Position numbers and translations under genes: made by a program
Notes under the pieces: model-generated
Databases searched by the model: none
The model's input: the letters and a program-made list of their open reading frames with translations, nothing else
Told to the model about the DNA's origin: nothing
Shown here: piece by piece, positions 11,117-64,000 of the stretch
Position numbering within the stretch: the first letter of the stretch is position 1
Layout: every line of letters begins with the position of its first letter
Source: Candidatus Krumholzibacteriota bacterium
Lineage (GTDB): Bacteria > Krumholzibacteriota > Krumholzibacteriia > JAJRXK01
NCBI GenBank assembly: GCA_029262065.1
Contig: JAJDAC010000022.1
Location: 251,982-315,981 of the forward strand
Length of the DNA: 64,000 bases
Reading direction: 5' to 3'

Positions 11117-11198
11117 GTTCCTACCCCTCGTGTATGCAGTGCAGGCGAGTCCCCACGATGCTACACCAAGGTTCCCGGGCGCGTCTTGATCGGAGAAT

Positions 11199-28139: not shown

Positions 28140-28358
28140 CAGGGGTTCAGTATCCCGGGGCCGGCCATGGTAGCACGGAGCCCGGAGGCCGAGAATGCCT
28201 GAGGAGCGAGGCTCTTGGCGCCCACGCTATTGCCCCCAGCCTGACGATCTGCGTACATTTGACGCGGATAGTGCGTGTCCCGAGCCGCACGGACCCTCCC
28301 GGTCCAGACTGTCCGTGCAAGCCCGAGTTCCTGCGAAAATCGAAATGGAGAGACGAAT

Positions 28359-31516: not shown

Positions 31517-31671
31517 GGACGTAAGCCTGGTCATATCGGGTTTGGTAGGCGGACTTCGCAAGCGCGAAGTCCGCCTTTTCGTACCCTCCCCATTCTTTTC
31601 TCCGGAAGTGAATCACGGTGGAGTACTCTCGTGCCGTCAGCGTTCCCGCCATATCAAGTCCTAGGAGGGTC

Positions 31672-44197: not shown

Positions 44198-44202
44198 TGT
44201 TC

Positions 44203-44973: not shown

Positions 44974-44993
44974 CGCTCTTCGCTCCAGTTGGA

Positions 44994-48189: not shown

Positions 48190-48199
48190 GGCCTGGACC

Positions 48200-49471
48200 T
48201 CACGACGAACCTTTCGCAAGTACTTGGACCTCGGGAATGGGAACCACGAACTGGCCACCCCAATCGTACACGTGCGCGTTGAGCCGTACGATCTCATCCT
48301 TGATGTTCCACGGCAGAATCAAGACATAGTCGGGTTTGGTCTGCGCCAGGTGGTCGGGCGAGAAGATGGGGATGTGGGTGCCCGGCAGGTACCGGCCCTG
48401 CTTGTAGGGACTGCGGTCCACGGTGTACTGGAGGAGATCGGTCCGTATGCCACAGTAGTTCAGCAACGTGTTGCCCTTGCCCGGCGCACCGTAGCCAGCC
48501 ACCGACTTGCCACGCTTTCGCGCATCGATCAGGAACTCCAGGAGAGCATGCTTGGTGGCATCGGTCTTTTCCTGAAACCGTGTGTAGCGCGCGATGTCGC
48601 CAAACCCCTGGGACTTCTCACGGGCCAGAAGCTCCCGAGCCCGTTCGGTCTCCGGCTTGGTTGCGTCGTCATCGTGACAACCGAAAACGCGCAAGGATCC
48701 TCCGTGCGTCGGCACTTCCTCGACATCGAACAACCGTATCCCGTGCGCCGCGAAGATACGGGCCACCGTGATGAAGGAGAAATAGGAGAAGTGTTCATGA
48801 TATATGGTATCGAACTGGTTCTCCTCGATCAGACGCAGCAGATGAGGAAACTCCAACGTAACAACACCTTGCTCGTTCAAAAGCACCTTGAAGCCGGCCA
48901 CGAAATCGTTGAGGTCGTGTACCTGGGCCAAAACATTGTTGGCAATGATCAGGTCGGCCATCTTGCCATCGTCGGCCATACGCCGCGCACTGCCGCGCCC
49001 GAAGAACTCGACACGGGTCGGTACGCCTTTTTCCACCGCCACCTTGGCCACGTTGGCCGCCGGTTCCACACCCATGACTGGCACGCCATGGTTCGCAAAG
49101 TGCTGCAGCAGGTACCCATCGTTACTGGCGACTTCAACCGCTAGACTGTCAGCTCCCAGCCCCAGGCGCTCGGTGATCATTGCAACGTAGCGAGCGCAGT
49201 GATCAACCCACGAATCCGAGTACGACGAAAAGTAGGCGTACTCGGTGAAGATGTCTTCCACGGCCACGTATTCGTCCAACTGGACCAAAAAGCACTCGTG
49301 ACACACCCGGACCCATAGCGGGTAGAACGCTTCCATTCGGTTGAGATTCTCGGCCGCCACATAGCTTTCGCACAGCGGAGACATACCCAGATCCACGAAC
49401 GTGTGCTCGAGCGGCGTGAAGCAGAAACGGCATTCCCCGGGTTGCGGTGCACGGTCAGACATGGGAAGCAC
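48200..49471 (-). CDS. NDP-hexose C-methyltransferase (TylC3-like; N-terminal Zn-ribbon + SAM MTase + C-methyltransferase C-terminal domain)
   Basis: CRFC...CHEC zinc-ribbon. SAM-binding [10 protein letters not shown]. The C-terminal domain is typical of sugar C-methyltransferases. Confidence 0.6.
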
Positions 49472-50489
49472 TCCAGCTCAGGTCGCTCTGGAGCAATCCG
49501 TCCTCCAGGAGTTGACGAATGTGGGCGATCCGATTGTAGCGGGGACCCTCGAACTCATCGATGGTCAGGCCAAATTTTTCATAGGCCCCAACCAACTGAT
49601 CCACTCCCTTGCGAGCGTTCCACTCCGGTTGAAACGCCGGCACATGCTCGAAGATCTTGGAGCTATCCACCTTGTAGTTACGCGAGTCTGGCCCGGCCTC
49701 GGCCGCAAACGACACCTCGCACTCGGGTAGACGCTCATGGACCAATCTGGCGAGATCTCGAATCTGATAGTTCTCACCCGGAGGCGCGACGTTGAACGCA
49801 TGATCGTGCACGGCCTCCTTGGGCGACTCGAGCACGGCAATGAACGCCGCCGCCATATCCAATACGTGGATGATCGGACGCCAAGGGGACCCGTCGCTTT
49901 TCAACAGAATCTTCCCCGAAGTGAATCCCCAGGCGGTCAGGTTGTTCAAAACAATATCGAATCGATGACGTGGCGATACGCCGTAGGCGGTGGCGAAGCG
50001 CAAGTATGTAGGCGAGAACTGTTCGCCGGCAAGCTGGGCCAGGTCACGTTCGGCCAAGACCTTTGATTCGGCGTAGGGCGTCACCGGCTTCAACTCGCAA
50101 TTCTCGCGGGCGGGTTCGTCCCCTTGTGCGCCGTAGTTGCTACATGAAGAAGTGAAGACGAATCTCTCAACCCCCGCTTCGCGAGCCAATGTTCCCAGAC
50201 GAACGGTGGCCCGATGATTGATCTCGAAAGTGAGGTCGGGGTTCAGATCGCCCAACGGGTCGTTCGACAACGCGGCTAGATGCAACACCGCGTCGTAGCC
50301 TTGCAGATCGTCGACGGTGGCGTTTCGAATATCGAGAATCTTCTCGCGAACCTCGGGCATAGAGGGACCATAGGTGCAGCGGCGATACAGGTCCGTATCC
50401 ATACCGGTCACCTCGTGGCCGGCCGCCATCAACTGGGACACCAGCACGGAACCCACGTAACCCTTGTGGCCAGTCACCAATGTCTTCAA
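49455..50489 (-). CDS. NAD-dependent epimerase/dehydratase (extended SDR)
   Basis: [17 protein letters not shown] (Rossmann GxxGxxG). Catalytic SSCS...YAESK (YxxxK). 344 aa. Confidence 0.75.
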
Positions 50490-51481
50490 CGAACACCACC
50501 TTCATTCGAATCTTCAAAGTTCATGATCTCGTGGGAAGAACCGTCGGCCGCGTATGGTTCCGCGCCGGGCGCCAATACTCCCCGCTTCGCGTCCTTGCGT
50601 GCTTCGGCGATTTGACCCAATACCCTTGCAACGAGCAGGCGTTGGTAGAACCGCTCCTCGCGATCGAAAGTGAATTGCCATTTGGCGATGCGTTCGATCA
50701 ACAGACGTACCAGGTAGCGTGGGATTCCAAAAAAGGAAACATCGCGCGGATACGGCTTCCGCCGCATCAGGAAGCGGCCGTAGTTGAAATACCAATTGCG
50801 CAGATAGTCAGGGTGCAACTTCTGGGTTTCGATGGGGTGAAAGACCACGGCCTCTGGCTCGTAGAGCAACGTCGCCCCGGCATCCATCATACGAGCCGAC
50901 AACTCGGTATCTTCGCCTCGGCCCATGGGGTTGTTGCCCGTGGGGCCCAGGTCGGTCCGAAACGTACCGTACTTCTCGATCGCCGTTCGGCGAAACGCCA
51001 TGTTGGCGCCGAAGGGCGACCGATTCAGCCTTACCCGGTCGGGGCCCAGATCGAACCGGAACGGAAAGAAACGGGCCTGCTTGAGCCAGGCCAGGCCACC
51101 GTCTTCGAATACCGGCAGGATCTTGCCGCCGGCTCCCGCGCAGTCGGTAGTGGCAAACGTGTTCCATAGGGCCTGGATCCACCCGGGTCCCAGTCCCACA
51201 TCGTCGTCGGTAAACAGAAGTATGTCGCCCGCCGCCATCTCGATGCCCCGGTTCAAGGCGAACGATTTTCCGATACGCTCTTCGAGTGCATAACCCACAC
51301 GGCCGCCGGTTTCCTCGGCGAATTCTTGGACCACTTGCGGTGTCGAGTCGCTGGATCCGTTGTCCACCACCACGACTTCCCAGCTCAGGTCGTCGGAAAC
51401 TTCTTGATTCAGCAACGAACGCAAAACGTTCGCCAGGCGCTGGCTACGATCACGGGTGCAGATGATGATGGTGATGTCCAT
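50486..51481 (-). CDS. Family-2 glycosyltransferase
   Basis: [12 protein letters not shown]...[10 protein letters not shown]... LFTDDD is a GT-A fold DxD-containing GT2. Confidence 0.7.
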
Positions 51482-51502
51482 GATGCTGAGCGTTCTGCCA
51501 GG

Positions 51503-52726
51503 CTAGGCTCCGGGGGTCTCCATTGGAGAAGCAGGCGCCGCCCCGTGTCGGACGGTCACTTTGGGTTTGCAGTTCGCCACGCCACGCACCTCAACGCCGG
51601 TATTCACGTAGACCGTGGCGGCTGGATTCATCGTATCGAACACATACTCGGTACCGTAGTTGTAGACGGTTATCTCAATGTCGTAGGCACCGTTCGCCAA
51701 ATTCAGATCGAGTTGAAAGGAACAGCTATAGGTGCTTCCCGACCGCAGGGAAAATGGCTCCTCGCCGAGTCTTTCGGTGGAAGTGTTGAACACGTTGTAA
51801 CCACTGCGATCCAGCATATCCAGCACCACCGCGAGACCTTCGCAATCAGCCAGACCCTCAAGCTCCACATCGATCCATGCACGTTCTCCGCTGTCGAACC
51901 GCATGTTCGCGCCGTCTTCGCCACGCAGTGAAACTGACACGATGCGTGCCTTGTGCCCCTCCCGATTCCGTGATGCGTAGGAAAGCCCCATGTAGGATTG
52001 GATGACTTCCTCAATGGGCCCAATCGACATCATCTGACCACGGTCGAGCAATAGGCTTCGGCCACAAAGGTCAGCCACGGCCTGCAGGTTGTGCGACACG
52101 AACACCACCGTCGTTCCGTTCTGGATCACAGTGTTCATGCGATCGAGGCACTTCTTCTGAAACATGTGATCGCCTACGCTCAGCACCTCGTCCACTACCA
52201 GAATCTCGGCGTCGACGTGCGCGGCCACCGCAAAACCAAGTCGCGCGTACATTCCGCTGGAATAGCGCTTCACCGGCGTATCGATGAAGTCACTGAGCCC
52301 AGAGAACTCCACGATTTCGTCGAAACGCAGTTCGATCTCGCGCCTGGCCATGCCCAGGATGGTCCCGTTCAGGTAGATGTTTTCTCGACCAGTCAGGTCG
52401 GGATGAAAACCCGCCCCGACTTCGATCAACGCCGACAAACTGCCGTTGACGTCGATCGTTCCCTTCGTGGGACGCATGATGCCACTCAACAGTTTCAAGA
52501 TCGTGCTCTTGCCCGCGCCGTTGTGACCGACGATTCCGAATGCCTCACCACGCGTGATCTCGAAAGAGATTTCCTTCAGCGCCCAGAACTCTCGCGACTC
52601 AAGATTCCCGGTGCGACGCAGGAATCGGCCAGTCAGCGCAGGCAGCAGGTCACGCAGCGAATCGTGGATCTCGCCCCGCTTGAACTTCTTATGAACATCG
52701 TCGAATGTGAGCACTACGTCGGACAA
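51503..52726 (-). CDS. wzt: ABC transporter ATP-binding protein for polysaccharide export (Wzt/TagH-like with C-terminal carbohydrate-binding extension)
   Basis: Walker A GHNGAGKST, signature YSSGMYARLGFA, Walker B ILVVDE. A ~150-aa C-terminal beta-rich extension follows. Confidence 0.85.
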   Translation of the reverse strand: MSDVVLTFDDVHKKFKRGEIHDSLRDLLPALTGRFLRRTGNLESREFWALKEISFEITRGEAFGIVGHNGAGKSTILKLLSGIMRPTKGTIDVNGSLSALIEVGAGFHPDLTGRENIYLNGTILGMARREIELRFDEIVEFSGLSDFIDTPVKRYSSGMYARLGFAVAAHVDAEILVVDEVLSVGDHMFQKKCLDRMNTVIQNGTTVVFVSHNLQAVADLCGRSLLLDRGQMMSIGPIEEVIQSYMGLSYASRNREGHKARIVSVSLRGEDGANMRFDSGERAWIDVELEGLADCEGLAVVLDMLDRSGYNVFNTSTERLGEEPFSLRSGSTYSCSFQLDLNLANGAYDIEITVYNYGTEYVFDTMNPAATVYVNTGVEVRGVANCKPKVTVRHGAAPASPMETPGA

Positions 52727-52755
52727 CTGATTCCCCTCGCCCCTCGCGTTGCTTT

Positions 52756-53541
52756 CTAGATGCTTTCGGCGAACATCGGCTCCGCCTTCTTGAAGAACGA
52801 ATATCCGGCGGTAAGCAAGATCACCGATACTGCCGCGCTATATCCAACCCACAGAAAATCGGGCGATTCGTGAAGCACCACGGTGTCGTTGAGACCCTCG
52901 AGAATCGGCGCCACGGGGTTGAGTAGAAGCACCGTGCCCCACTTACCGAACATCTCAACCTCGTAGAACACTGGCGTGAAGAAAATCGCGAACGTCAGGA
53001 CCACTTCGGTAAGATACTTCACGTCCCGGAAGAACAAACTGGCGGCGGACAAGACGGTGCCCAGCCCAACCGTGAACAACACCAACAGAGCAATGAGCAA
53101 TGGCGCCCACAACACCTGCAGCGACAGGCCAACGCCCGACACGAGCAAGATCACGGTCAGCGCGACGGAAGCCACGAGGAAATCGATGAGTTGCGACGCG
53201 ACCGACGCCACGGGAAAGATCTCCTTGGGAAACGATATCTTTGTCACCAGGTTTGTGTTGGCGATGAGGCTGTTGGTGGCGAACCGCAGGGCGGAAACAA
53301 AGAACGCCCACGGCACCGCCTTGACTGAGATGGTGGCTACTTCGCTGAGCAAGAAGGGCTTCTGCGCCACGTGAGCCATGGCGTACTTCACCAGAATGCC
53401 CGCCGCCACGATGATCAATGGCATGAAGATGGCCCACAGGAAGCCCATCATTGACTGCTTGTACTTGATGCGTACTTCACGCCACGTGATCATGTACAGC
53501 AGCTCACGGTAGCGAAAGAGGGTTTTCAGGTGCTCCAGCAT
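52756..53541 (-). CDS. wzm: ABC-2 type polysaccharide export permease (Wzm/TagG-like)
   Basis: 261 aa, 6 transmembrane helices. N-terminus LFRYRELLYMITWREVRIKYKQSMMGFLWAI typical of Wzm. Confidence 0.8.
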   Translation of the reverse strand: MLEHLKTLFRYRELLYMITWREVRIKYKQSMMGFLWAIFMPLIIVAAGILVKYAMAHVAQKPFLLSEVATISVKAVPWAFFVSALRFATNSLIANTNLVTKISFPKEIFPVASVASQLIDFLVASVALTVILLVSGVGLSLQVLWAPLLIALLVLFTVGLGTVLSAASLFFRDVKYLTEVVLTFAIFFTPVFYEVEMFGKWGTVLLLNPVAPILEGLNDTVVLHESPDFLWVGYSAAVSVILLTAGYSFFKKAEPMFAESI

Positions 53542-53558
53542 GTGCCTCTACTGGCCGC

Positions 53559-54530
53559 TTACGCGGCTAGCTTTCCGCGCATCCGGCGCAGCGTCGACGC
53601 GGGGTTACCAGCCAGGTTGGCCACGGCGCGACCAGCGCAGCCCAACTTCCGGCGCCAGTCCCATTCGATCTCCATCTCTTTCATGCCCGATTCATGGTAG
53701 TCCCAGAATTCCTTCGAACGCCGCGACAGCAACGCCTCGCCAAGATAGGCCCAGTACCGACCACCCAGTTCGCGCGCACGACGGTCGCACTCGTGCGGCT
53801 CGAGGGCCCAGCTGCCGTACTCGTGGAGCAGTACAAGTTCGTGGAGCAGATACGGGTTGAATGACTCGAACGCGGAGGTGATCGATGCGTTGTCCACTCG
53901 GACGTAGGTCAAGACCCGATGAACGAAGCCAAAGTCACTTTCTTTCAACAGCTCGTAGCACACCTTCGTGTCTTCCAGAAGACTCTCTTCGGAGTAGAAC
54001 CTCGGTCGCGCGCGAACCAGGTCACTGCGGTACATGACCGTGGAGGGTGAACCGAACACCGACATGGAATGAAGCAGGTGCCGACGGCAAGCCGTCCGGC
54101 CCGAAACTACCGCCTCTTCAAAGGCAAGACCCTGTGCGCCCACCCTTCGGCCGCGCAGGAGATATGCTCCTACCAGACCCACGGCGGGGTTTGCGTCGGC
54201 GAGAGTGGCCATGGCGTCGAGGCACTCGGGCATCATCCAGTCGTCGGCCTGGATTACCTTGCAGTACCGACTCTCGTCGGATATCGACGCCATCGCTCGG
54301 TTGTAGTTGGGCACCTGGGCCAGGAACTCTTCGTGCCTGACGTGACGGATTCGACTGTCGCGCCTGGAGTACTCGGCGGCAATATCGCTGGTTCCATCGG
54401 TACTGCGATTGTCGGCAATGATGTATTCCCACTGGGTGTGGGTCTGCGCCAGTACGCTGTCGATACACTCGGCCAGCGAATCGGCCGTGTTGTAGACAGG
54501 CGTGACGATGCTCACGAATGACTGGCTCAT
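53559..54530 (-). CDS. Family-2 glycosyltransferase (first gene of polysaccharide operon)
   Basis: Proposed start MSQSFVSIVTPVYNTADSLAECIDSVLAQTH...YIIADNRSTDGT, typical of GT2. The ORF could extend to 54602. Confidence 0.65.
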   Translation of the reverse strand: MSQSFVSIVTPVYNTADSLAECIDSVLAQTHTQWEYIIADNRSTDGTSDIAAEYSRRDSRIRHVRHEEFLAQVPNYNRAMASISDESRYCKVIQADDWMMPECLDAMATLADANPAVGLVGAYLLRGRRVGAQGLAFEEAVVSGRTACRRHLLHSMSVFGSPSTVMYRSDLVRARPRFYSEESLLEDTKVCYELLKESDFGFVHRVLTYVRVDNASITSAFESFNPYLLHELVLLHEYGSWALEPHECDRRARELGGRYWAYLGEALLSRRSKEFWDYHESGMKEMEIEWDWRRKLGCAGRAVANLAGNPASTLRRMRGKLAA

Positions 54531-54689
54531 CTGCCCTTTTTTGCTTCGAAGGTTATGCATTCCCGCATGGGTCCATGATCCCATCTGCGACATCCGTACC
54601 ACTCGGGCTGGAAGCGGTCAATACACTGGCCGCCGAGGACGCGTTCGCGTTTCACACCCAATCCGCACCAATTCCCATAACCGTGGCCT

Positions 54690-54745
54690 CGGTACCGAAA
54701 ACGAACGCATGTTATTGAATTAAAACAACTTAATGGATCTTTCCT
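54690..54745 (-). promoter_or_regulatory. AT-rich putative promoter of the 11-gene polysaccharide operon, with ~170-nt leader
   Basis: AT-rich island (ttattgaattaaaacaacttaatgg) upstream of the first minus-strand gene. All genes from 54530 down to 43538 are co-directional with gaps of 30 bp or less. Confidence 0.3.
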
Positions 54746-57218
54746 AGCGCCGGCCCATGAGAATCCAGGGAGCCCACTTGTCCGGAGCGGACCATCGCGG
54801 GTCGTGCCGCAGAAAGAGCTTCGCCTTGCGCAGTGCCTGGGCGTACTCGCGCTGCGCAAATTCTGGCGCCAGCATCGCCCGCCTCAGCACCTCCTCGGCG
54901 GCATCATCGACCGCTTCGGACACGGGCAGCACCACGCGCTGGGTTCCCGCCGAGAGAAAGGCATGGGCGACCTCCAGGCCCTGGACGCCGGCCTGGGGCC
55001 ACGATAACCAGGCCAACGCGGCCTCCTGGCTCAACTGGGTCAACTCGAACGCACTCAGGTGGCCGTTGTCCTCTTCGTGTCCTGATCCCGGCGACAGTTT
55101 CAACGCGGGCCCCTGGGCGCCCTGGGACGGGCTCACGCGAGTTGCCACGTGAAGTAGCTCGACCCTCCCCAGCAGCTGCCGCAGTTCTCCCTCGGTGGCG
55201 TTCCTGCCCGTGAGTTCGGCCACGCGCACGCCCCGCAGCGACGTGGTGAACACGTGGCTCTGCCTCTGACTGGACGGCCAGGTGTTTTCTTCCCCAGGGA
55301 GCGCGGGCGCGCTCAGGGTAACCATTACACCGGATGGGGGCTCCACCTCGGACTGGGCGAGAATTGCCAGCATGGCCACGGACGGGGCGTACCGAACCGT
55401 TGGCCCAGAGTCCAACCAATACACCGGATCAGGAGCGTTGACCGAACCCGTGATCAGGGTCTCGAAGGGAAATCCCACCAGTACGGAGTGAGGCACCACG
55501 ATCACGTGCGCCTTCTCGGCCAGCGTGGGCCGCACTGTTTCGGGCACCAGAATTTCCCAGAGGGCGTGTCCGCGCGCGAGCGGTTGATCCTCGAGGGTGG
55601 GCGCCTCCAGCCAGCCGCGCAACCCGTCACGCCCCACTCCGAGCGAGCGAGCGAGCTTGCCCGTGCGGTCGACAGCTTCGAGCTCTACGGCTTCGAGTGG
55701 ACGATCCGCGGTGGCGACGAACACGAAGCTACGATCACGACCCACGTGGTACTGCAGAAGGGATTCGTCGTCCCACAGGTGCAGAGATGGATTCAGGGAC
55801 ACTAGCCTGGGGTGTTTCCAGAGCACGGTTTCCTCGAAGCGCCGCACGTCGGCTCGCGCAAGCCGCCAGGCCTGCCACGTCGCGTCGATCGAACCTGTAT
55901 CGATTTGCCGAATGTCGTCGCGAACCGCGAGTGCACGCGCGTTTCGCTCACGGTTGATCGCCTCGGCGTGGCGCGGGTTGCGTGCAGGCAATTTCAGCGG
56001 TCGCAGCCAGGCCTGAAAGCACTCCGCCACGAACATTGCCTCGGTCGGAGTGTCCGCATCGACATTCCAGGCCACCAGGTCATCGGCCAATGCCGCCACG
56101 TGATGGGGCCACTCGAGTTCACTCGCGCGACGGGGACACCCGGCCGCGGGTATTTCTTCGCGCATGGCCCACGCAGCCCGAGCGTCGTCCAGCCCCTGCT
56201 CACGTTTTCCTTGCGCGTCGAAGCGCCGAGCGCGGGTCATCAGCGCCACCGCCAGGTTCGTCGCGAAGCGGGGGTGCGACGCGAAGATCTCTATTTCAGT
56301 ATCGAGTCCCGCCGGGCCCAATTGCGACCGTGGACCAGCGAGTCGGGCCAGAACCAGACGGAGCCGAGCACAATCAGGATCCCGGAACCCCAGACTGGAT
56401 TCGAACCGCGCCAGTATCGGTCGCAGCGAATCGACCGCGGCGACGGCCAGGCCAGCCCGCAGGGCCGCCACGGCCCGATCGGCGTGGGCGCGTACCAGCC
56501 AACGCAACGGGACACCGCCATTGCCCGCGGCCAGCAATGCCTCACTCCACCAACGGTGAGCATCCCGCCACTGTCCGCCACTGGCCTCCAGCATCGCCCT
56601 CTCGTGGTTCCACTCGAACCGGGAGGTCAGGTCGTCGGGGTCCAGAACGATCGATTCGAGTACGGAACGCGCCGGGTCAAGCCGGCCTTCCGCGCGCAGC
56701 GCGCGGGCCACACCCAGACGGGCGCGTGAACGAGCCAAGTCTGACGAGTCCATGGAAACGATCGATTCGTACGCTTCGCGCGCCGGGACGTACAGGCCGC
56801 GAAACACGAGGAGTTGGGCCAGCTGATCGAGCCAGTTCGCGAGTTCGGTAGTCTGATCGACCGACCGCGACGGTTGCGACTGCACGATCCCCACGGCCAC
56901 CTCGTACGCCGCGGAGGCATCCTCGAGCCGACGCTGTGCGTCGGTCAGCTGAGCCAGGCGAGCCCAGGCGGCAGCCACTTCGAACGCACCCTCGCCGAAC
57001 TGCTCGCGCGCGACTTCGATCGCCATCTGGGCCTGGTCCAGCCCGGAGATCCGTTGACGGGGAGTGGACGGCGATGCTTCCGAGGGGCCCGAACGCAGGC
57101 TGACCGGGCCGGCGGTAGGAGCCGGTTGCGCCGGCGGCGCTGGCTCACGTGCGCATGCCGCCAGAGCCACCACCAGGAGCACGAGACAGCCGCAAATGTA
57201 GGAGCACCGAATATTCAT
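54744..57218 (-). CDS. Exported TPR-repeat protein with C-terminal CHAT-like domain lacking the catalytic His/Cys (predicted pseudo-protease)
   Basis: Internal start with lipobox (MNIRCSYICGCLVLLVVALAACA). Long TPR-like N-terminal region. The C-terminal domain aligns with the CHAT domain of the 8729-11116 protein, but LHFATHA becomes LHVATRV (His to Arg) and LSACRT becomes LSWPQA (Cys to Pro). Confidence 0.5.
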   Translation of the reverse strand: MNIRCSYICGCLVLLVVALAACAREPAPPAQPAPTAGPVSLRSGPSEASPSTPRQRISGLDQAQMAIEVAREQFGEGAFEVAAAWARLAQLTDAQRRLEDASAAYEVAVGIVQSQPSRSVDQTTELANWLDQLAQLLVFRGLYVPAREAYESIVSMDSSDLARSRARLGVARALRAEGRLDPARSVLESIVLDPDDLTSRFEWNHERAMLEASGGQWRDAHRWWSEALLAAGNGGVPLRWLVRAHADRAVAALRAGLAVAAVDSLRPILARFESSLGFRDPDCARLRLVLARLAGPRSQLGPAGLDTEIEIFASHPRFATNLAVALMTRARRFDAQGKREQGLDDARAAWAMREEIPAAGCPRRASELEWPHHVAALADDLVAWNVDADTPTEAMFVAECFQAWLRPLKLPARNPRHAEAINRERNARALAVRDDIRQIDTGSIDATWQAWRLARADVRRFEETVLWKHPRLVSLNPSLHLWDDESLLQYHVGRDRSFVFVATADRPLEAVELEAVDRTGKLARSLGVGRDGLRGWLEAPTLEDQPLARGHALWEILVPETVRPTLAEKAHVIVVPHSVLVGFPFETLITGSVNAPDPVYWLDSGPTVRYAPSVAMLAILAQSEVEPPSGVMVTLSAPALPGEENTWPSSQRQSHVFTTSLRGVRVAELTGRNATEGELRQLLGRVELLHVATRVSPSQGAQGPALKLSPGSGHEEDNGHLSAFELTQLSQEAALAWLSWPQAGVQGLEVAHAFLSAGTQRVVLPVSEAVDDAAEEVLRRAMLAPEFAQREYAQALRKAKLFLRHDPRWSAPDKWAPWILMGRR

Positions 57219-57252
57219 TGAGGACCACCTGCGCGGCCACTCTATCGCAACG

Positions 57253-57268
57253 TTCATTCGACGTCGAA
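57253..57268. promoter_or_regulatory. 16-bp perfect palindrome CATTCGACGTCGAATG upstream of the CHAT-like gene
   Basis: Located ~35-50 bp upstream of the proposed start codon at 57218; candidate operator. Confidence 0.3.
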
Positions 57269-57293
57269 TGATCCACGGCCGAAGTGGGAAAAG

Positions 57294-57328
57294 AGAAGAG
57301 CCCGACCCCAAAAAGGGTCGGGCTCTTC
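57294..57328 (-). terminator. Rho-independent terminator of paralog A (14-bp stem GAAGAGCCCGACCC)
   Basis: GAAGAGCCCGACCC-caaaaa-GGGTCGGGCTCTTC. On the minus strand the hairpin is followed by TCTTTTCCC. Confidence 0.7.
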
Positions 57329-57356
57329 GTCTCCGTCGCGCGGATGAATTCGGAAT

Positions 57357-58934
57357 CTACTCGCTGAACATGGGACCGATTCGCTCGGTCGCAACCGCCA
57401 CGTGGGTGAAGAACACGTGCTGGTTCTTCGGCCACATGCGAGCGCCACCGTGGTACAGGTTCATCCAGAACTTCTCGATGTAGCTGGGAACGTCCGACAG
57501 ACGTACGTAGCGCGAGTAGGCCAACTCGCCGTCGATCCAACCCTCGACCCAACCGTGTACTTCGTCGGTGTCCATCTTGACGTGGGTTTCCAGGCAGTAC
57601 CAACGACCCGGCTCCAGCATGTGGCTGTCGCCATTCTGGTCCCAATGGTCATGGTCTCCCCAGGTCGTGGCCTGGTCCTGGGAATACAGGTACGTACCTA
57701 CCGGAACGCGACCCTGGTCGTCATCGCGACCCAGATCGCCACGGGCCGACCAACACTTGTCACCGTTGCCCGGCGTACGTCCTCCCCAGGCACATTCATC
57801 GAACGTGCTGGAGAAACCAGGAAACTTGCCGACGTCGTTCATGTCGAACCCGGGCTCGAACATGGCGTAGAAGCGCGCGTACATCTCCATCTGCTGGCCG
57901 TCGAAGCGCTTGTAAAAGTCCATACCGCCATTCGAGTTCGTCCGGCAGGGCGCGCGCAGCGCTTTTCCGAAATACTGATCGTCGACCTGCACCAGGTCGA
58001 ACTTGTCAGCACCACGCCACTTGTCGCGCCAATTGGACTGCTCAAAGTCTTCAAACAATACGATGCGGGGGTCGGACCCCAGGCCTACGTCATTGGGGTA
58101 GGCCGACGCGAAGCCGTCGCCCGAACCGGGCGCGGGCGGCGGAGGAGGAGGCGGCGGAGCCATTCCCTCCTGCACGTACAAGGTGAACGCTGCGGTCGAT
58201 TGCAAACCAGGCTCTCCGTCGTCGGTCACGCGAAGCAGAATGGAATACACGCCCAGGGCGAATTCCACATCGGTCGTTTCGCCACGCCCGATGAGCGTGG
58301 GAATGCCCGATTGGTCGAACCACTCCCAGGAAACGATGGAACCGTCGGGGTCGGTCGAAGTCGATCCGTCCAATGTGACCGTGACGAAGCCATCTTCGTC
58401 ATCATCGCTGACCACGCTCTCCGTACGGCTGGCGTTGGCCACCGGGCTACCCGCAGCGGGCGAAGAATTGGAATTGATGATATTCAACGTAACTTCGTGA
58501 CTGGCGCCGGGGCGGCCGGCGAGACTCGCGCCGGGGTAGGCCAGAACTTCGATGGTCACTGCCCCCATGGGCGGCGTCCACTCGAAGTAGTCACCGCCGT
58601 AGTCGCCAGCGATCGAGAACGGCGCCGCGTTTTCCACCTGACGGCGGGTGCCATTGACCTGAAACTCCACACTGGCCGTTCCGTCGGTCACGTTGGCCCA
58701 CATGGTCACGGGGGGCATGGTCGCCAGGTCGAGCGTCGCGCCATTGGGAATGGGGTCGAACCCTGGAATGGGAATTCCGATGCGTGAATCGATCAGCGTC
58801 AGGCTCTCAACGACCGGTGTCTCGCCTGTGGGATCGGGATCCGGATTCGGATTCGTACCACCCTCGGGCCCGGGTTGTTCGGGCACGCCCGCGATCTCGC
58901 AGCCGGACACGGCGAGCGAAAGCAGGAGCGTCAT
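57357..58934 (-). CDS. Paralog A: lipoprotein with beta-sandwich domain, PKD domain, poly-Pro linker and conserved C-terminal ~300-aa domain of unknown function
   Basis: Lipobox LAVSGC; the start is uncertain between 58934 and 59180. PKD block (VTLDGSTSTDPDGSIVSWEWFD..GVYSILLRVTDDGEP). A PPPPPPPPAP linker. The C-terminal domain carries the motifs VLFEDF..W..KWRGADK, GKFPGFSSTFDECAWGGRTPG, CWSARGDLG, TTWGDHDHWDQNGDSH, EGWIDGELAY, WMNLYHGG. Confidence 0.5.
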   Translation of the reverse strand: MTLLLSLAVSGCEIAGVPEQPGPEGGTNPNPDPDPTGETPVVESLTLIDSRIGIPIPGFDPIPNGATLDLATMPPVTMWANVTDGTASVEFQVNGTRRQVENAAPFSIAGDYGGDYFEWTPPMGAVTIEVLAYPGASLAGRPGASHEVTLNIINSNSSPAAGSPVANASRTESVVSDDDEDGFVTVTLDGSTSTDPDGSIVSWEWFDQSGIPTLIGRGETTDVEFALGVYSILLRVTDDGEPGLQSTAAFTLYVQEGMAPPPPPPPPAPGSGDGFASAYPNDVGLGSDPRIVLFEDFEQSNWRDKWRGADKFDLVQVDDQYFGKALRAPCRTNSNGGMDFYKRFDGQQMEMYARFYAMFEPGFDMNDVGKFPGFSSTFDECAWGGRTPGNGDKCWSARGDLGRDDDQGRVPVGTYLYSQDQATTWGDHDHWDQNGDSHMLEPGRWYCLETHVKMDTDEVHGWVEGWIDGELAYSRYVRLSDVPSYIEKFWMNLYHGGARMWPKNQHVFFTHVAVATERIGPMFSE

Positions 58935-59412
58935 GGCGAGGACGCAACGCGAAACACGAGCCGCGCGTTGTATTCTGAATTGCGATCCGCGAAAAATTAC
59001 CACGGTGGAAGAAACCTCTGGGAACGGGGACGAACTTGCCGCCCTAAATAGGCGGGTCCGACCTGGGATCATTACAAGTTGTGCGCCAAGGGGCCCACAG
59101 GTACACGAGCGAGGGGGCGAGAGCTTCCCTCTGGCGTGGAGCGATTCTTTGTCGTGTGGGGACCCCCTTGCTAATGCCATACCGTGGAGATGTCAACCGG
59201 CCAGGACCCCATCGTGGCGACACCTGTCGCAAGTGTTTCGAAAACGACCGCGTAACGCGTAAATCGGGCAACGAGTTGAACGAATTGGGTGATCCGCGCC
59301 AGGCAGCGACCGAATGAAGCCGCCGGGCCCGCGCAAGGAATGCGTGGGCCCGGGAATCGGCCCCGGTCCGCGGCGATGCGGCCCGGGGCAAAACCCTACA
59401 TATGGACTGAGA

Positions 59413-61389
59413 TCAGGGGGTAGCCGATCCGGCCCGGGGCCCGATACGCTCGGTCGCAATGACCACATTGGCGAAAAATACGTGCTGGTTCCTGGGCCAC
59501 ATGCGCACGCCGCCGTGGTAGAGGTTCATCCAGAACTTCTCCACGTAGGTCGGGGCATCCGAGAGCTGCACATACCGGGAGTACGCCAGCTCACCGTCGA
59601 TCCAGCCCTCCACCCAACCATGGCGACGGTCCGTATCCACCTTCACATGCGTCTCCAGACAGTACCAACGGCCTGGTTCGAGCCGGTGACTGTCACCGTT
59701 TTCGTCCCAGTGATCGTGGTCGCCCCAAGTAGTCGCCTGATCCTGTGAATACAGATAGGTACCCACGGGGACCCGCCCCTCGCTGTCCTCGCGGCCCAGG
59801 TCGCCACGCGCGGACCAACAGCGGTCGCCCGAGCCGGGCGTACGCCCTCCCCAACCGCACTCGTCGAACGTGCTGGAGAAACCCGGAAACTTGCCCACGT
59901 CGCTCATGTCGAACCCCGGTTCGAACATGGCGTAGAACCGTGCATACATTTCACTGGGCTCGTCATCGAACCGCTTGTAGAAATCCATTCCACCGTTGGA
60001 GTTCGTACGGCACGGAGCCCTCAACACGGTTCCGAAGTACGGGTCGGCGACCTGAACCAGGTCGTACTTATCGGCCCCTCTCCATTTGTTTCGCCAGTCC
60101 CCCTGCGCGAAATCCTCGAACAGGATTACCCGTGGGTCTCCCCCGATTCCCGCGTCACTGGGATAGTTCCCCGCGAATCCCTGGCCCGATCCGGGGGGCG
60201 GAGGTGGGGGCGGCGACGGCGCGGAATCCACGACGACTGTGAAGTCGGTGGACGCCGACAGAGACGGTTCTCCGTCGTCAGACACCGTCAGCGTGAACGC
60301 GTGCGAACCCACGGCCAACGAAACGTCGATACGTTCACCCTGGCCAAGACTCGCATCGCCATTGGTTCGATCGAACCACTCCCACCGCAGAATCTGACCA
60401 TCGGGGTCGACCGAAGCGGACCCGTCGAGCGTCACGACTTCGAGGCCGTCATCATCGAGATCGGCAACTTGCGTCAACGTGGCACCGGCATCGGCTACCG
60501 GCGGCTGCGGCTGCCCTGGCTCTTCTTCGGTTGATTCAACGGTCTTGATATCGACCGTCAGCCCGACCCCAGGTCGCTGAGAACCGTCATCGATCGAATA
60601 CGGAATGGCCTCCAACGCTAGGTTGCCCACGGGGGCTACCCACGGGAAGTAGTCGCCGTCGCGATCTCCCGCCAACGCGTAGGGCGACTTGCTCTCGTTG
60701 CGAACGTGGTCACCGTTCACTTTGAACGACACCCTCGAAGCCGCACCATCAACGTTGGCCCGAACATTCAGCCGCGCCGGAAGCGCCGAGAGATTCAGCA
60801 CCGCGCCAGGAACGAGCGGATCGTGCCCACTCACGGGCTGATCGTTGTCGGCGTTGATCAACGTGAGGCTGGTGACACGAGGCCCCGATGGAGAAGGAGG
60901 CGTGTCGGGCGGCAACTCCGAGTCGCAATCGCCCGCGTCCTCTGGACAGGGATCGACACAAGCGCCGATCGCCACCAACACCTGGAAGATCTTCAGATCC
61001 TCGATATCGACCGTACCGTCCGAATTGAGATCGGCACGGCGCTCGTAGCGATCCATTGCGTTTTCCAGGATCAGGCCATCGAGTTCGTCGACGCAGCCTG
61101 ATCCATCCAGATCCCCATATACGGTGCCGCACATTCCGTCACCGTCCTGGTCGCCCCCCTGTTCGGCCGGACAAGCATCTCGACGGTCAACGACACCGTC
61201 TCCGTCGTAATCCTGGGTGTCCGAGAGCAAAGGCAGCTCTTCGTCTGGCGCGACATCGTTGGACTCGCACCCTCCCGTCATCAACAACCCAATGAGCATC
61301 AGGACTGAGACCCGATCCCATGGAGCGAAATTCGCACCCCGCCTGGGTGGTGTTGCAATCAGTTTTGGTAGTCGGCGATAGAAATTCAC
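59413..61389 (-). CDS. Paralog B: lipoprotein with Ca-binding TSP3/dockerin-like repeats, beta-sandwich domain, PKD domain and the conserved C-terminal domain
   Basis: Lipobox LMTGGC. D-x-D-x-DG repeats (DYDGDGVVDRRD, DQDGDGM, DLNSDGTVDIEDLKIF). PKD (VVTLDGSASVDPDGQILRWEWFD). A PPPPPPP linker. The C-terminal domain is about 80% identical to paralog A. Confidence 0.5.
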   Translation of the reverse strand: MNFYRRLPKLIATPPRRGANFAPWDRVSVLMLIGLLMTGGCESNDVAPDEELPLLSDTQDYDGDGVVDRRDACPAEQGGDQDGDGMCGTVYGDLDGSGCVDELDGLILENAMDRYERRADLNSDGTVDIEDLKIFQVLVAIGACVDPCPEDAGDCDSELPPDTPPSPSGPRVTSLTLINADNDQPVSGHDPLVPGAVLNLSALPARLNVRANVDGAASRVSFKVNGDHVRNESKSPYALAGDRDGDYFPWVAPVGNLALEAIPYSIDDGSQRPGVGLTVDIKTVESTEEEPGQPQPPVADAGATLTQVADLDDDGLEVVTLDGSASVDPDGQILRWEWFDRTNGDASLGQGERIDVSLAVGSHAFTLTVSDDGEPSLSASTDFTVVVDSAPSPPPPPPPGSGQGFAGNYPSDAGIGGDPRVILFEDFAQGDWRNKWRGADKYDLVQVADPYFGTVLRAPCRTNSNGGMDFYKRFDDEPSEMYARFYAMFEPGFDMSDVGKFPGFSSTFDECGWGGRTPGSGDRCWSARGDLGREDSEGRVPVGTYLYSQDQATTWGDHDHWDENGDSHRLEPGRWYCLETHVKVDTDRRHGWVEGWIDGELAYSRYVQLSDAPTYVEKFWMNLYHGGVRMWPRNQHVFFANVVIATERIGPRAGSATP

Positions 61390-61622
61390 CTTTGACGAAA
61401 CCTTCGGCCACGAAGACGAACTTGGCTCCCTCCCGCGCGTTCTCAGTGGTGTTCACCATCAAGCCGTGCGCCATTGCCCACAGTCGTGGGCCAAGGTGAT
61501 TCCGATGATGTCGGACACGCCAGCAAGAGGGAAAGCCTCGTCCCCCCGGGGGCCGACCAGTACAAACCTCCGCCGTACGCCGTCGTAGTGGCCCGGAGTC
61601 CGTCAACGAGGCCCGCTTTGAT

Positions 61623-61668
61623 CGCCATATATGGCGCAGGAACTCGCCTGTAACTCTTGTAATTACAA
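61623..61668. promoter_or_regulatory. AT-rich divergent promoter region with two perfect palindromes (CGCCATATATGGCG and TTGTAATTACAA)
   Basis: Lies between paralog B (minus) and the small lipoprotein gene (plus). A 14-bp and a 12-bp perfect palindrome sit ~20 bp apart. The first contains the CCATATATGG core also found at ~34897. Confidence 0.35.
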
Positions 61669-61792
61669 TCAGTTAAAATTTCATGAATTTTGTTTGGGAG
61701 ATTGAAGCCCTGTTGCAAATGAGTCCCGTGAAGCCGCGGTGATGGCGACCAGCCGGACCGCAAACAGAACAGGACCCGAAGGAGACATCCCA

Positions 61793-62317
61793 ATGAAGAA
61801 GACGTTCCACACCGCACTGAACACTGTTGCCATGCTCGCCATGACCGCCAGCCTGAGCCTGATGACCGGCTGCAGCGAAGACGCCCCCAACAATCCCAAC
61901 GACCCGATCGTGGTCGAAGACACGTTCGACGGAACCTACGAGGGCGCGAACACCTTCTCGGTCGACCTGATCGTCGACGACTTCAATGACCCCAACACGC
62001 CCCCCGCCACGGGAACCTGCGTGGGCAACATTTCGGTAACGGTGGACGAAAATGGACTGATCGAGGTCGTGGGCAACGGCAATTGCCTCACCGCGGCCAA
62101 CGCGGCGAGCTACACGCTCGAAGGCCAGGTCGGGCAGGACGGAAACGCGCAGGGCACCATGGACATCGTGTTCAACAATCGCAGCAATGTCGTGGATTGG
62201 CAGGGAACCTTCGACGATGGCGTTCTTACCGTGGCCTTCTCGGGCCGTACCCCAGCCGTAGGTACGATCGAGATCGATTGGGACGGCGACTTCACGGCTA
62301 CGCTGGTCGAACCCTAG
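61793..62317 (+). CDS. Small lipoprotein, function unknown
   Basis: AGGAG ribosome-binding site. MKKTFHTALNTVAMLAMTASLSLMTGC lipobox. 174 aa, Asp/Gly/Thr-rich beta-type sequence. Confidence 0.5.
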   Translation: MKKTFHTALNTVAMLAMTASLSLMTGCSEDAPNNPNDPIVVEDTFDGTYEGANTFSVDLIVDDFNDPNTPPATGTCVGNISVTVDENGLIEVVGNGNCLTAANAASYTLEGQVGQDGNAQGTMDIVFNNRSNVVDWQGTFDDGVLTVAFSGRTPAVGTIEIDWDGDFTATLVEP

Positions 62318-62341
62318 AAACCGCCGGGCAGGTTGAAACAA

Positions 62342-62374
62342 ACGGGCCCCCGCATGTGGCGGGGGCCCGTTTTT
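62342..62374 (+). terminator. Rho-independent terminator (ACGGGCCCCCGC-atgt-GCGGGGGCCCGT + TTTTG)
   Basis: 12-bp GC stem followed by a T-run, directly after the stop at 62317. Confidence 0.75.
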
Positions 62375-62427
62375 GCTGGTCAACTTTGGAACGCCAGCCA
62401 GCCAAGGGCAATACTCAACAAGGCCCG

Positions 62428-63996
62428 CTACAGGGAGCCCCCACCGGTGCGGTGCATGGGCCCGATTCGCTCGGTGGCGACAACCACGTTGGCGAAGAAC
62501 ACGAACTCGTCCTTGGGCCAGGTACGGCCGCCACCGTGGTACAGGTTCATCCAGAACTGCTCGATGTACGTCGGCGCATCGGCCAACTGAACTCGCCGGG
62601 TATAGGCCAGCTCACCGTCGATCCAACCTTCGAGAAGCCCATGCAATCCGTCGGCTTCCACGCGCACGTGGGTCTCGATGCAATACCATTCGCCGGGGAC
62701 GAACAGGTGACTGTCCCCGTTTTGATCCCAGTGGTCGTGATCGCCCCAGGTGGTAGCCTGGTCCTGCGAGTACAGGTACGTACCCACGGGAATCCGATCG
62801 TCGCCCTGACTGCGCCCGAGATCGCCACGTGCCGACCAACAGCGATCGCCCGCGCCGGGAGTACGGCCACCCCACCCGCATTCACCAAACGTGGCCGAAA
62901 AACCAGGAAACTTGCCCACATCGTTCATCTCGAAGCCTTCTTCGAAACGAGCGTAGTAGCGCGCGTACATTTCCATGGGTTGACCATCGAAACGCTTCAC
63001 GAAGTCCATCGCGCCATTGGTCGCGTCGTCGCACGGGGCCCGCAGCACAGTGCCGAACTCGGCGGACGGAACGCGCACCAGATCGTACTTGTCCGCACCA
63101 CGCCATTGGTCGCGCCACGACTCCTGCGAGAAGTCCTCGAACAGCACCACGCGCCCGTCGCTTTCGATCCCTACGTCATTGGGATATTGCGACGCGAAGC
63201 CCTCTGAGTCGGACCCCGGTTCCGGATTCGGCGTTATCACGAAGAACCCGAACTCCTGGTCGTTCGTCATACCCGCCCGGCTGTCGTCGGTGACCCGTAG
63301 CAGCACGGAATGGACTCCCGTGTCAAACGAACGACTCAGCGTCGAGCCCGATCCCAGGTAGTTGGGAATGGCCGACCGCGATGTGTCATACCAATCCCAG
63401 CCTATGATAGTGCCATCGAGATCGTAGGATTGGGTTCCTACCAGCGCCAGCGTCGCAATACCGTCGCGGTCGTCATCGATCACGAGGCGCTGAGTGCCGT
63501 GCGCATCGGCTACTGGCGGCAGGCTCAACAGCCCCTCGCCGCTTTCGACCACCACGAAATTCACGGTATACGGAGCACTCGATTGTTCAACGGTATCGTC
63601 TTTTCCGAATGCGGTTACCGTCAATATGGTCCGGCCCATGGGAGGCAACCACGGAAGATATTCGCCGTCTTCATAGCCCGCGATCGCGAACGGACGGGTA
63701 TCGCGCAAGCTCGACTGTTTGTCATCCAGTTCGAAACGTACGCTCCTGGTCGTGCTGCTCGCATTGGCCCGCAACGTAACGCGTCGATGTTCGGCTACAT
63801 TGAGCACAGCGTCACGCGGCAGCGGGTCGAACCCCTCGACGGGTTCGCCGGTTCGGGTATCGACAAGACTCAGGCTCGTGATCGCCACGGGATCACAGGC
63901 GCCATCCACGCACGGATCCTCTTCCACCGAGGCCGGCCGCTGCGCGATTTCGCAACCCGCGGTGACGACGAGACAAAGCAGGATCCAGGTTCGCAA
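62428..63996 (-). CDS. Paralog C: lipoprotein with beta-sandwich domain, PKD domain and the conserved C-terminal domain
   Basis: Lipobox LVVTAGC. PKD (GTIIGWDWYD..GVHSVLLRVTDDS). The C-terminal domain has the same invariant motifs (CWSARGDLG, TTWGDHDHWDQNGDSH, WMNLYHGG). Confidence 0.5.
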   Translation of the reverse strand: MRTWILLCLVVTAGCEIAQRPASVEEDPCVDGACDPVAITSLSLVDTRTGEPVEGFDPLPRDAVLNVAEHRRVTLRANASSTTRSVRFELDDKQSSLRDTRPFAIAGYEDGEYLPWLPPMGRTILTVTAFGKDDTVEQSSAPYTVNFVVVESGEGLLSLPPVADAHGTQRLVIDDDRDGIATLALVGTQSYDLDGTIIGWDWYDTSRSAIPNYLGSGSTLSRSFDTGVHSVLLRVTDDSRAGMTNDQEFGFFVITPNPEPGSDSEGFASQYPNDVGIESDGRVVLFEDFSQESWRDQWRGADKYDLVRVPSAEFGTVLRAPCDDATNGAMDFVKRFDGQPMEMYARYYARFEEGFEMNDVGKFPGFSATFGECGWGGRTPGAGDRCWSARGDLGRSQGDDRIPVGTYLYSQDQATTWGDHDHWDQNGDSHLFVPGEWYCIETHVRVEADGLHGLLEGWIDGELAYTRRVQLADAPTYIEQFWMNLYHGGGRTWPKDEFVFFANVVVATERIGPMHRTGGGSL

Positions 63997-64000
63997 CGGA

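Follow-up and report, generated by a model that had tools for sequence, protein, structure and literature searches.

Three putative exported lipoproteins with a divergent PL14/PL36-like polysaccharide lyase domain in a Krumholzibacteriota bacterium

The three genes described here likely encode lipid-anchored, exported polysaccharide lyases, each ending in a β-jelly roll of about 250 aa that belongs to the PL14/PL36 group, a group that cuts acidic sugar polymers such as alginate. Sequence comparison and structural modelling indicate that this C-terminal domain is a divergent member of the group, an uncommon version of a well-known type of enzyme, and thus not a new kind of protein. Positions are those of the window, the whole stretch of 64,000 nucleotides that was analysed.

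Gene and module layout

As the preliminary description had stated, three open reading frames (57357-58934, 59413-61389 and 62428-63996 in the ORF list) run in the same direction; all lie on the minus strand, and we refer to them as copies A, B and C. All three share one order of modules, consisting of an N-terminal Ig/FN3-like β-sandwich, a PKD-like module, a Pro-rich linker and the C-terminal domain. The features are as follows.

57357..59003, minus strand: copy A gene (ORF list, start-candidate codon walk, Pfam)
58455..58823, minus strand: copy A N-terminal Ig/FN3-like β-sandwich module (AF2 pLDDT 90.5)
58161..58454, minus strand: copy A PKD-like Ig domain (K319L-like_PKD 25.4 bits against a cut-off of 27; PKD_4 E 0.0035)
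58116..58160, minus strand: copy A Pro-rich linker (PPPPPPPAPGSG; alignment)
57360..58115, minus strand: copy A PL14/PL36-like lyase domain, residues 274-525 (PF21294 36.5 bits, profile-to-PDB search, model, fold searches, conservation)
59413..61389, minus strand: copy B gene, 658 aa, GTG start, lipobox LMTGGC
60979..61224, minus strand: putative Ca-binding dockerin/TSP3-like segment of copy B only, residues ~56-137 (Pfam, alignment gap in A and C)
60493..60885, minus strand: copy B β-sandwich module (alignment)
59416..60186, minus strand: copy B PL14/PL36-like lyase domain (PF21294 35.5 bits)
62428..63996, minus strand: copy C gene, 522 aa from TTG at 63996, lipobox VVTAGC
63502..63882, minus strand: copy C β-sandwich module (alignment)
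62431..63207, minus strand: copy C PL14/PL36-like lyase domain (PF21294 34.4 bits)
57295..57328, minus strand: intrinsic-terminator-like hairpin with a 15-bp stem, 10 GC pairs and a T-rich tail

A lipobox-type N-terminus of the form [AGS]-C-E is visible by inspection in each copy (VSGC, TGGC and TAGC), and hydrophobic stretches precede LAVSGC in copy A, LLMTGGC in copy B and VVTAGC in copy C. Judged by eye for a charged n-region, a hydrophobic core and a lipobox of the pattern [LVI..][ASTG][GAS]-C, the three proteins are putative lipid-anchored, exported lipoproteins, in line with the earlier proposal, and we infer a surface location for them. In the case of copy A there are two candidate starts, the ATG at 58934 adopted in the preliminary description, which gives 525 aa, and an upstream GTG at 59003, and the latter is more likely to be the start since only it provides an Arg-rich, charged n-region ahead of the LAVSGC lipobox. 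The n-region of copy B is long (26 aa). The database protein P0008 is identical to copy C (100% over 522 aa) and has 14 additional N-terminal residues, so that the true start of copy C may lie beyond the window end, past position 64000. A plus-strand ORF sits between copies B and C, and the three genes are thus not a single unbroken tandem array. The terminator-like hairpin lies 29 nt past the copy A stop codon; searches for tRNA and Rfam features across the window and for sigma-70-like promoters in 57000-64000 gave no matches.

The succession of β-sandwich, PKD domain, Pro-rich linker and C-terminal domain that had been proposed is real, except that the PKD assignment falls just short of the Pfam cut-off of 27 bits (PF22352/PF18911) in copy A, at 25.4, and in copy B, at 26.1, and copy C gave no Pfam PKD match in this region. 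As the region is homologous across the three copies (36-47% identity) yet scores under the gathering cut-off, "PKD-like" seems a reasonable description, and it is not meant as assignment to the PKD family. An assignment of the N-terminal β-sandwich to a CBM family was dropped, because Pfam gave at most weak Big_7 matches, the six small homologues found all lack Pfam domains, and the best Foldseek match, the Fn3-like module of CbhA, reached only E 0.007. In copy B, residues 91-134 match Dockerin_1 (PF00404) with 22.5 bits, just under the cut-off of 22.9, and contain two visible D-x-D/N-x-DG loops, with weak TSP_3 and EF-hand matches, and this near-threshold support is consistent with the extra TSP3/dockerin-like repeats that had been noticed in the middle copy.

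The C-terminal domain and its relatives

The Pfam profile PF21294 (Polysacc_lyase_14) matches the C-terminal domain of every copy with 34-36 bits, above its gathering cut-off of 27. It also scores the PL14 enzyme AkAly30 (223 bits) and the PL36 enzyme Aly36B (70.5 bits), so the match signifies membership at the level of the group and not of CAZy PL14, and placement in a CAZy family is uncertain since the copies' scores are modest and below that of the PL36 enzyme. A single-sequence phmmer search of the PDB returned proline-linker noise only and a family profile was required; built from the three copies and 7 homologues, it reached Aly36B with E 5.3e-15, AkAly30 with 2.1e-7 and vAL-1 with 0.039. 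The Aly36B match is better than those to the PL14 structures, but identity to it is only ~17%. PL14 and PL36 HMMs often both match the same sequences, and the two families split only at E 1e-25 (PMC11890756).

The AF2 model of the lyase domain (pLDDT 80.1, pTM 0.83, with low confidence in an active-site loop at model residues 110-117) is a β-jelly roll that matches the solved PL14 structures, and its best seven Foldseek matches are Aly36B, vAL-1 and AkAly30 at E 1e-14 to 5e-12, the next being at 8e-8. A model whose best matches are polysaccharide lyases supports the earlier guess of a secreted jelly-roll catalytic domain acting on a glycan. The same description had called the domain unplaced, novel and ~300 aa long; it is in fact ~250 aa, and the PF21294 match above cut-off together with the profile matches to Aly36B and AkAly30 removes the novelty on that description's own terms.

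The candidate catalytic residues, K370, S396, R398, Y415 and Y417 in copy A, are invariant in the three copies and conserved throughout the family, where 152 of 155 representatives have the K, 150 the S and 152 the R, and each Y is found in 147. Residue equivalences with the characterised enzymes were drawn from sequence and profile alignment. Aly36B, a PL36 endo-mannuronan/alginate lyase (PDB 6KCW, 6KCV and 6KZK) with the same β-jelly roll, has K143, R169, Y185 and Y187 in the places of K370, R398, Y415 and Y417; K143 and Y185, which HMMER aligns with the GKFPGF lysine and the first tyrosine of YLY, are the residues mutated in 6kcv and 6kzk according to the PDB entries. In AkAly30, an alginate/polyM lyase from Aplysia kurodai (PDB 5GMT), GGKLPG, C-F-S-L-R and Y-A-Y correspond to GKFPGF, C-W-S-A-R and Y-L-Y, the first two being aligned by HMMER and the Y-x-Y register being offset by 2. 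We take the cleft residues of AkAly30 to be K99, S126, R128, Y140 and Y142, a numbering that agrees with the Cys115 and Cys124 positions cited for that enzyme. In Aly36B a Lys serves as base and acid, PL14 enzymes use Tyr/Tyr, and the Cys115-Cys124 loop of AkAly30 shapes subsite -1 (PMC8618178).

Several features set the window copies apart from these enzymes. Aly36B is a single-domain enzyme, unlike the Ig-PKD-linker lipoproteins, and it lacks the Cys pair, the serine context of GWSARG and the H-D-H cluster that the copies contain. AkAly30 shares with the copies a Cys pair that brackets the loop before S-x-R, but it is a eukaryotic secreted single-domain enzyme of ~18-20% identity to them, and has no H-D-H cluster. 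The resemblance to vAL-1, a PL14 glucuronan/alginate lyase of a Chlorella virus (PDB 3A0N and 3GNE), is marginal and confined to the C-terminal third, and this viral cell-wall-degrading enzyme has a different N-terminal domain. A large family of PF21294-positive bacterial "PL14-like" proteins, with 7,080 cluster representatives and 346 genome loci in Planctomycetota, Verrucomicrobiota, Bacteroidota and other groups, has a lyase domain that is 33-39% identical to that of the copies and shares the invariant motifs GK(F/L)PG, WGGR, GWSARG, Y-x-Y, GWIDG and YHGG. Its members usually combine Disaggr_repeat or CBM96 with the lyase domain (55 and 34 of 87 members), in contrast to the Ig-like, PKD and lyase layout here, and they have Gly/Ala at the Cys-pair sites, His at the Ser418 site and no H-D-H. 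The literature searched contained no biochemically characterised member of this family.

All three copies contain every motif block listed in the preliminary description with little or no variation, except that VLFEDF is separated from the W by 4 residues and not by 1. Of the blocks to which it could give no function, CWSARG, which holds the predicted catalytic S-x-R, and YHGG fall within family-wide motifs, whereas the H-D-H cluster is indeed peculiar to a small clade. Features specific to that clade are limited to this cluster, to the Cys pair and to a handful of further residues (C381/C394, S418, H428-D429-H430 and H438 in copy A). Among the 155 representatives, H-D-H, H438 (domain position 169), S418 and the extra Cys co-occur only in the three copies and their closest relative, P0001. 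In this clade H428-D429-H430, H438, the loop clamp formed by Cys381-Cys394 and a further Cys would be gains. The His that commonly follows Y-x-Y, present in 128 of the 155 and in Aly36B and replaced by Ser in the window copies, would be a loss.

Age of the copies

The three copies are old paralogues under purifying selection. Their lyase domains are 81-83% identical in amino acid sequence between A and B and 72-73% between C and either of these, with dN/dS of 0.04-0.15. The DNA under the conserved domain can be aligned as had been reported, with 73-77% identity over 300 nt (57372-57671, 59437-59736 and 62458-62757); compared module by module, DNA identity is 72-76% for the lyase domain and 47-55% for the N-terminal modules. 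The further claims of a recent tandem duplication and of N-terminal module shuffling do not hold. Synonymous sites are saturated in all pairs (dS 1.4-3.0), which together with the DNA identities rules out a recent origin, and the N-terminal modules are homologous in all three copies (33-47% identity) and align with one another, the segment in copy B being the sole addition, which rules out shuffling. The copies probably have different subsite preferences or are expressed under different conditions.

Predicted activity, substrate and genomic context

By homology to characterised enzymes that are no closer than ~20% identity, the domain would act by β-elimination on a uronic-acid-containing polysaccharide. 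The S-x-R pair (S396 and R398 in copy A) would neutralise and position the substrate carboxylate, and abstraction of the C5 proton and protonation of the O4 leaving group could be carried out by K370 of GKFPGF, the counterpart of Aly36B K143, and/or by Y415 and Y417, the latter corresponding to the Tyr/Tyr route assigned to PL14; the product would be an unsaturated oligosaccharide. Cys381 and Cys394 bracket the WGGR loop just ahead of S-x-R and probably fix it, a role suggested by the parallel with the AkAly30 Cys115-Cys124 disulfide. A stalk that keeps the catalytic domain off the membrane is the most likely role of the Ig-like and PKD-like modules together with the Pro-rich linker, and the dockerin/TSP3-like segment of copy B may add Ca-dependent attachment.

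The substrate is most likely an exogenous polyuronide, for example mannuronan/alginate or β-glucuronan, since lyase activity on these polymers is, to our knowledge, the only activity known in PL14/PL36. Gene context could not supply a substrate: the window contains no uronate-catabolism or polysaccharide-utilisation genes, the surroundings of P0001 are uninformative on this point, and the nearest neighbours of 68 homologous loci include no recurring partner (sulfatase 6/100, with CAZyme-like genes scattered).

It is conceivable, if on balance doubtful, that the copies and P0001, a rare clade with a possibly remodelled active-site surround, represent a new PL14/PL36-related subfamily with a specificity undescribed for the fold. 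Its target might be some acidic glycan besides alginate and glucuronan, perhaps a bacterial EPS, and the enzymes would be displayed on an unusual Ig-like/PKD stalk at the surface of an uncultivated deep-branching bacterium.

We think it unlikely that the target of the lyases is exopolysaccharide or capsule made by the organism itself, for trimming, release or biofilm dispersal, instead of foreign polymers. A Wzm/Wzt ABC-transporter-dependent glycan biosynthesis cluster lies at 43538-54602, ~2.7 kb downstream of copy A, with two GT2s, an epimerase/dehydratase, a sugar C-methyltransferase, an aminotransferase and a PIG-L deacetylase, and lyases or hydrolases are encoded beside EPS biosynthesis genes elsewhere, for example AlgL in alginate producers. 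The window's lack of unsaturated-uronate catabolic genes would also suit such a role, as would the participation of alginate lyases in biosynthesis pathways (PMC11890756). However, neither the cluster nor the rest of the window encodes a UDP-sugar 6-dehydrogenase or other uronic-acid-forming enzyme, and so nothing marks the local glycan as a lyase substrate; an unrelated CHAT/TPR gene and a strong terminator stand between the lyases and the cluster, and P0001 has no adjoining Wzm/Wzt-type glycan cluster.

A change of substrate or mechanism within the same fold, in which H428-D429-H430 and H438 bind a metal or act as base in place of the lost His and confer a new specificity or non-lyase chemistry, is quite improbable in our view. 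The confinement of the clade-specific residues to four sequences and the low PF21294 scores could be read in this way, and PL14 and PL36 relatives are polyspecific (PMC6442616, PMC11890756), but the canonical K, S-x-R and Y-x-Y are all kept under strong purifying selection, 23 other family members have lost that His and none of them has an H-D-H cluster, and metal dependence is not described for PL14/PL36 enzymes. We set aside as very improbable that the domain is a jelly roll with no catalytic role, serving a surface lipoprotein in carbohydrate binding or as an adhesin. This reading was prompted by the lower ranks of the fold-search lists, where concanavalin-like jelly rolls (lectins, calreticulin, toxin binding domains) occur, and by a combination with Ig-like, PKD and dockerin-like modules that is typical of adhesins.

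With the preferred reading of exported lyases acting on an exogenous polyuronide, a supposed orphan domain becomes a testable annotation, that of three polyuronide lyases anchored at the cell surface, in a bacterial lineage that has been little sampled. Characterising one copy would extend the known polyspecificity of jelly-roll lyases, with no new category of biology, and would offer a substrate clue for thousands of "PL14" genes that have a loose annotation or none, in Planctomycetota and in other bacteria of the sea and the soil.

Three genes with a common C-terminal domain

The three co-directional genes described for 57357-63996 were found there as minus-strand ORFs, here called copies A, B and C:
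57357-58934, minus strand: copy A, long ORF, 525 aa
59413-61389, minus strand: copy B, long ORF, 658 aa
62428-63996, minus strand: copy C, long ORF, 522 aa

They are predicted from sequence to be three old paralogous PL14/PL36-type polysaccharide lyases, distinguished by an unusual stalk and a rare clade-specific residue set. Each N-terminus has a hydrophobic stretch followed by a lipobox-like Gly-Cys and then Glu (LAVSGC-E in A, LLMTGGC-E in B and VVTAGC-E in C), and the proteins are probably lipid-anchored. Read from the ATG at 58934, copy A is without a charged n-region, which an in-frame GTG at 59003 provides, and the start of copy C may lie beyond the window, because P0008, a database protein 100% identical to it, has 14 extra N-terminal residues.

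Every motif block quoted in the preliminary description was recovered in the three-way protein alignment: VLFEDF..W..WRGADK(F/Y)DLV, GKFPGF..TF.EC.WGGRTPG.GD.CWSARGDLGR, (V/I)PVGTYLYSQDQATTWGDHDHWD.NGDSH, G(W/L)(V/L)EGWIDGELAY and FWMNLYHGG. The C-terminal domain (~250 aa) is 72-83% identical between the copies and the two N-terminal modules 33-47%; the DNA under the conserved domain aligns at 73-77% across 300 nt, essentially where this had been proposed.

That description was largely real in its observations and wrong in its key reading, that the domain could not be assigned to any family. PF21294 (Polysaccharide lyase 14) scores 34.4-36.5 bits in all three copies, above the curated Pfam cut-off of 27. 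Searching the PDB with a single sequence gave no genuine match. A profile combining the three copies with seven homologues from the database matched Aly36B, a PL36 alginate lyase (E 5.3e-15), AkAly30, a PL14 alginate lyase (E 2.1e-7), and the PL14 enzyme vAL-1 (E 0.039). The AlphaFold2 model built from the profile alignment is a beta-jelly roll (pLDDT 80.1, pTM 0.83), and its first seven Foldseek matches are to these same three enzymes (E 1.4e-14 to 4.9e-12); the matches that come next, to generic concanavalin-like folds, start at E 8e-8. The PF21294 match is not specific to CAZy PL14, as the model scores AkAly30 at 223 bits and the PL36 enzyme Aly36B at 70.5 bits, both higher than the window copies; moreover, PL14 and PL36 HMMs cross-hit and the families are difficult to tell apart (PMC11890756). 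For these reasons we name the domain only at group level: what can safely be said is that it belongs, as a divergent member, to the PL14/PL36 group of jelly-roll lyases. What is new here is such a member of an already known group, not an orphan domain.

Candidate catalytic residues and clade-specific positions

PDB entries 6KCV and 6KZK are the K143A/Y185A and K143A/M171A forms of Aly36B, and the substitutions are visible in the HMMER alignments, in which K143 corresponds to the Lys of GKFPGF (K370 in copy A), R169 to the Arg of W-S-A-R (R398) and Y185 to the first Tyr of Y-L-Y (Y415). AkAly30 has GGKLPG and C-F-S-L-R at the places of GKFPGF and C-W-S-A-R. According to a review (PMC8618178), its Cys115-Cys124 disulfide controls the active-site loop at subsite -1; the counterparts in the copies are the Cys directly preceding S-x-R and another one 9-13 residues N-terminal to it. 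Reviews assign the roles of both base and acid in Aly36B to Lys and a Tyr/Tyr route to PL14 enzymes; the Lys of the former and the Tyr/Tyr of the latter are both present in the copies. Among 155 wider-family representatives, K and R are each conserved in 152, S in 150 and each Tyr of Y-x-Y in 147. The retention of catalytic-type residues, together with a lyase-domain dN/dS of 0.04-0.15 between paralogues, points to copies A, B and C being active enzymes.

An exhaustive profile search returned 7,080 cluster representatives at E <= 1e-3, of which 625 reach E <= 1e-30. Scanning species-representative genomes gave 346 loci; these belong chiefly to Planctomycetota, Verrucomicrobiota, Bacteroidota, Myxococcota and Gammaproteobacteria, and each shares 33-39% identity with the domain in the window. 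Several "PL14" genes per planctomycete genome are routinely reported (PMC4807772). One wider-family member, P0012 (669 aa), also carries a glucuronoyl esterase domain of fungal type (PF22244, E 1.6e-30), a fusion hinting that at least some members act on glucuronic-acid-containing substrates. Features found family-wide are GK(F/L)PG, WGGR, GWSARG, Y-x-Y, E180, GWIDG, N223 and Y-(H)-G-G. Since GWSARG and Y-(H)-G-G are among these, two of the blocks previously listed as having no assigned function, CWSARGDLG and YHGG, represent known signatures of the family, and only the third, DHDHW, stands as a rare-clade marker.

Compared with the wider-family representatives, the clade-specific residues occur in the three copies and P0001 alone, the latter being their closest lyase relative (55-63% identity). 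They comprise the Cys381/Cys394 pair (Ala/Gly and Gly in relatives), a Cys at domain position 61 (Val/Ile in relatives) opposite the common Cys178, a Ser after Y-x-Y (His in 128/155 relatives), an H-D-H run (mostly x-W-x) and a His at domain position 169 (Gly).

Stalk modules and age of the duplications

The N-terminal module is confidently modeled as an Ig/FN3-like sandwich (pLDDT 90.5), for which a fold search gave no significant structural match (best E 0.007) and which has six homologues only, small and unannotated. The second module is PKD-like; copies A and B score slightly below the Pfam cut-offs for it, and in C it is undetected. Copy B contains a further segment, ~130 aa long, whose calcium loops resemble those of dockerin, TSP3 and EF-hand motifs (Dockerin_1, 22.5 bits versus a cut-off of 22.9). 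The Ig-like plus PKD-like stalk is unusual, because the usual partners in the wider family are Disaggr_repeat (55/87 members) and CBM96 (34/87).

Recent tandem duplication with N-terminal module shuffling had been proposed. Synonymous sites are saturated for every copy pair (dS 1.4-3.0), so the duplications are old, and the DNA remains alignable through protein-level constraint, not youth. Homologous N-terminal modules are common to all three copies, which argues against shuffling; judged from these sequences, their history is one of faster divergence and a single gain in copy B. The array is interrupted between B and C:
61739-62317, plus strand: small ORF with its own lipobox, in which an internal ATG gives MKKTFHTALNTVAMLAMTASLSLMTGC..., a lipoprotein-type signal

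This ORF has no Pfam match, and the gene call is uncertain because a 236-aa minus-strand ORF (61673-62383) overlaps it.

A FlgD_ig C-terminal domain ends several large secreted-looking proteins of the window (31618-32634, plus; 32762-34840, minus; 39836-43327, plus), one also with Kelch and ASH modules, and it occurs next to P0001 as well (in L081, 10857-14006), a distribution suggestive of a lineage-specific tag for sorting or anchoring.

Genomic context and substrate

A strong terminator-like hairpin lies 3' of copy A, and the surrounding features are:
54744-57311, minus strand: large CHAT-domain protein with TPR repeats, directly downstream of copy A
8729-11581, minus strand: second large CHAT-domain protein with TPR repeats
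43538-54602, minus strand: Wzm/Wzt-type (ABC-transporter-dependent) glycan biosynthesis cluster, beyond the CHAT/TPR gene downstream of copy A

The 54744-57311 gene probably begins further in than annotated, because its TTG start overlaps the hairpin (57295-57328). By coordinate, the cluster encodes a PIG-L deacetylase, class-III aminotransferase, DUF4910/M28-like protein with wHTH, sugar C-methyltransferase, NAD epimerase/dehydratase, GT2, Wzt ATPase with a Wzt_C domain, Wzm and a further GT2, suggesting a methylated amino-sugar polymer as product; no uronic-acid-forming enzyme was seen in it. Genes for uronate catabolism, for a dehydrogenase that forms uronic acids or for a typical polysaccharide-utilisation system are absent from the 64-kb window, and no partner gene recurs in the P0001 context or among the nearest neighbors of 68 homologous loci.

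Elsewhere in the window are a sulfatase fused to TPR repeats (11199-12836, minus), a HAMP-GGDEF-EAL c-di-GMP turnover protein (2948-5140, plus) and numerous secreted peptidases (M28, M3, DUF4953 Met-zincin, aspartyl protease), which together suggest a protein- and polymer-degrading lifestyle. The organism's RF3 shares at most 77% identity with any other, and its named relatives fall in several phyla. For four sizeable ORFs, Pfam gave no match at E <= 0.01: 28275-29333 (plus, 352 aa), 29330-31516 (plus, 728 aa), 825-1919 (minus, 364 aa) and 5137-6243 (minus, 368 aa). The last adjoins an MBOAT O-acyltransferase (6218-7618), reminiscent of the gene pairs for O-acylation of polysaccharides or teichoic acids.

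The only known PL14/PL36 activities are alginate/mannuronan and beta-1,4-glucuronan lyase (PMC11890756, PMC6442616). The significance of the copies is modest and lies in the uncharacterized specificity of their clade, as well as of the large surrounding family of bacterial proteins.
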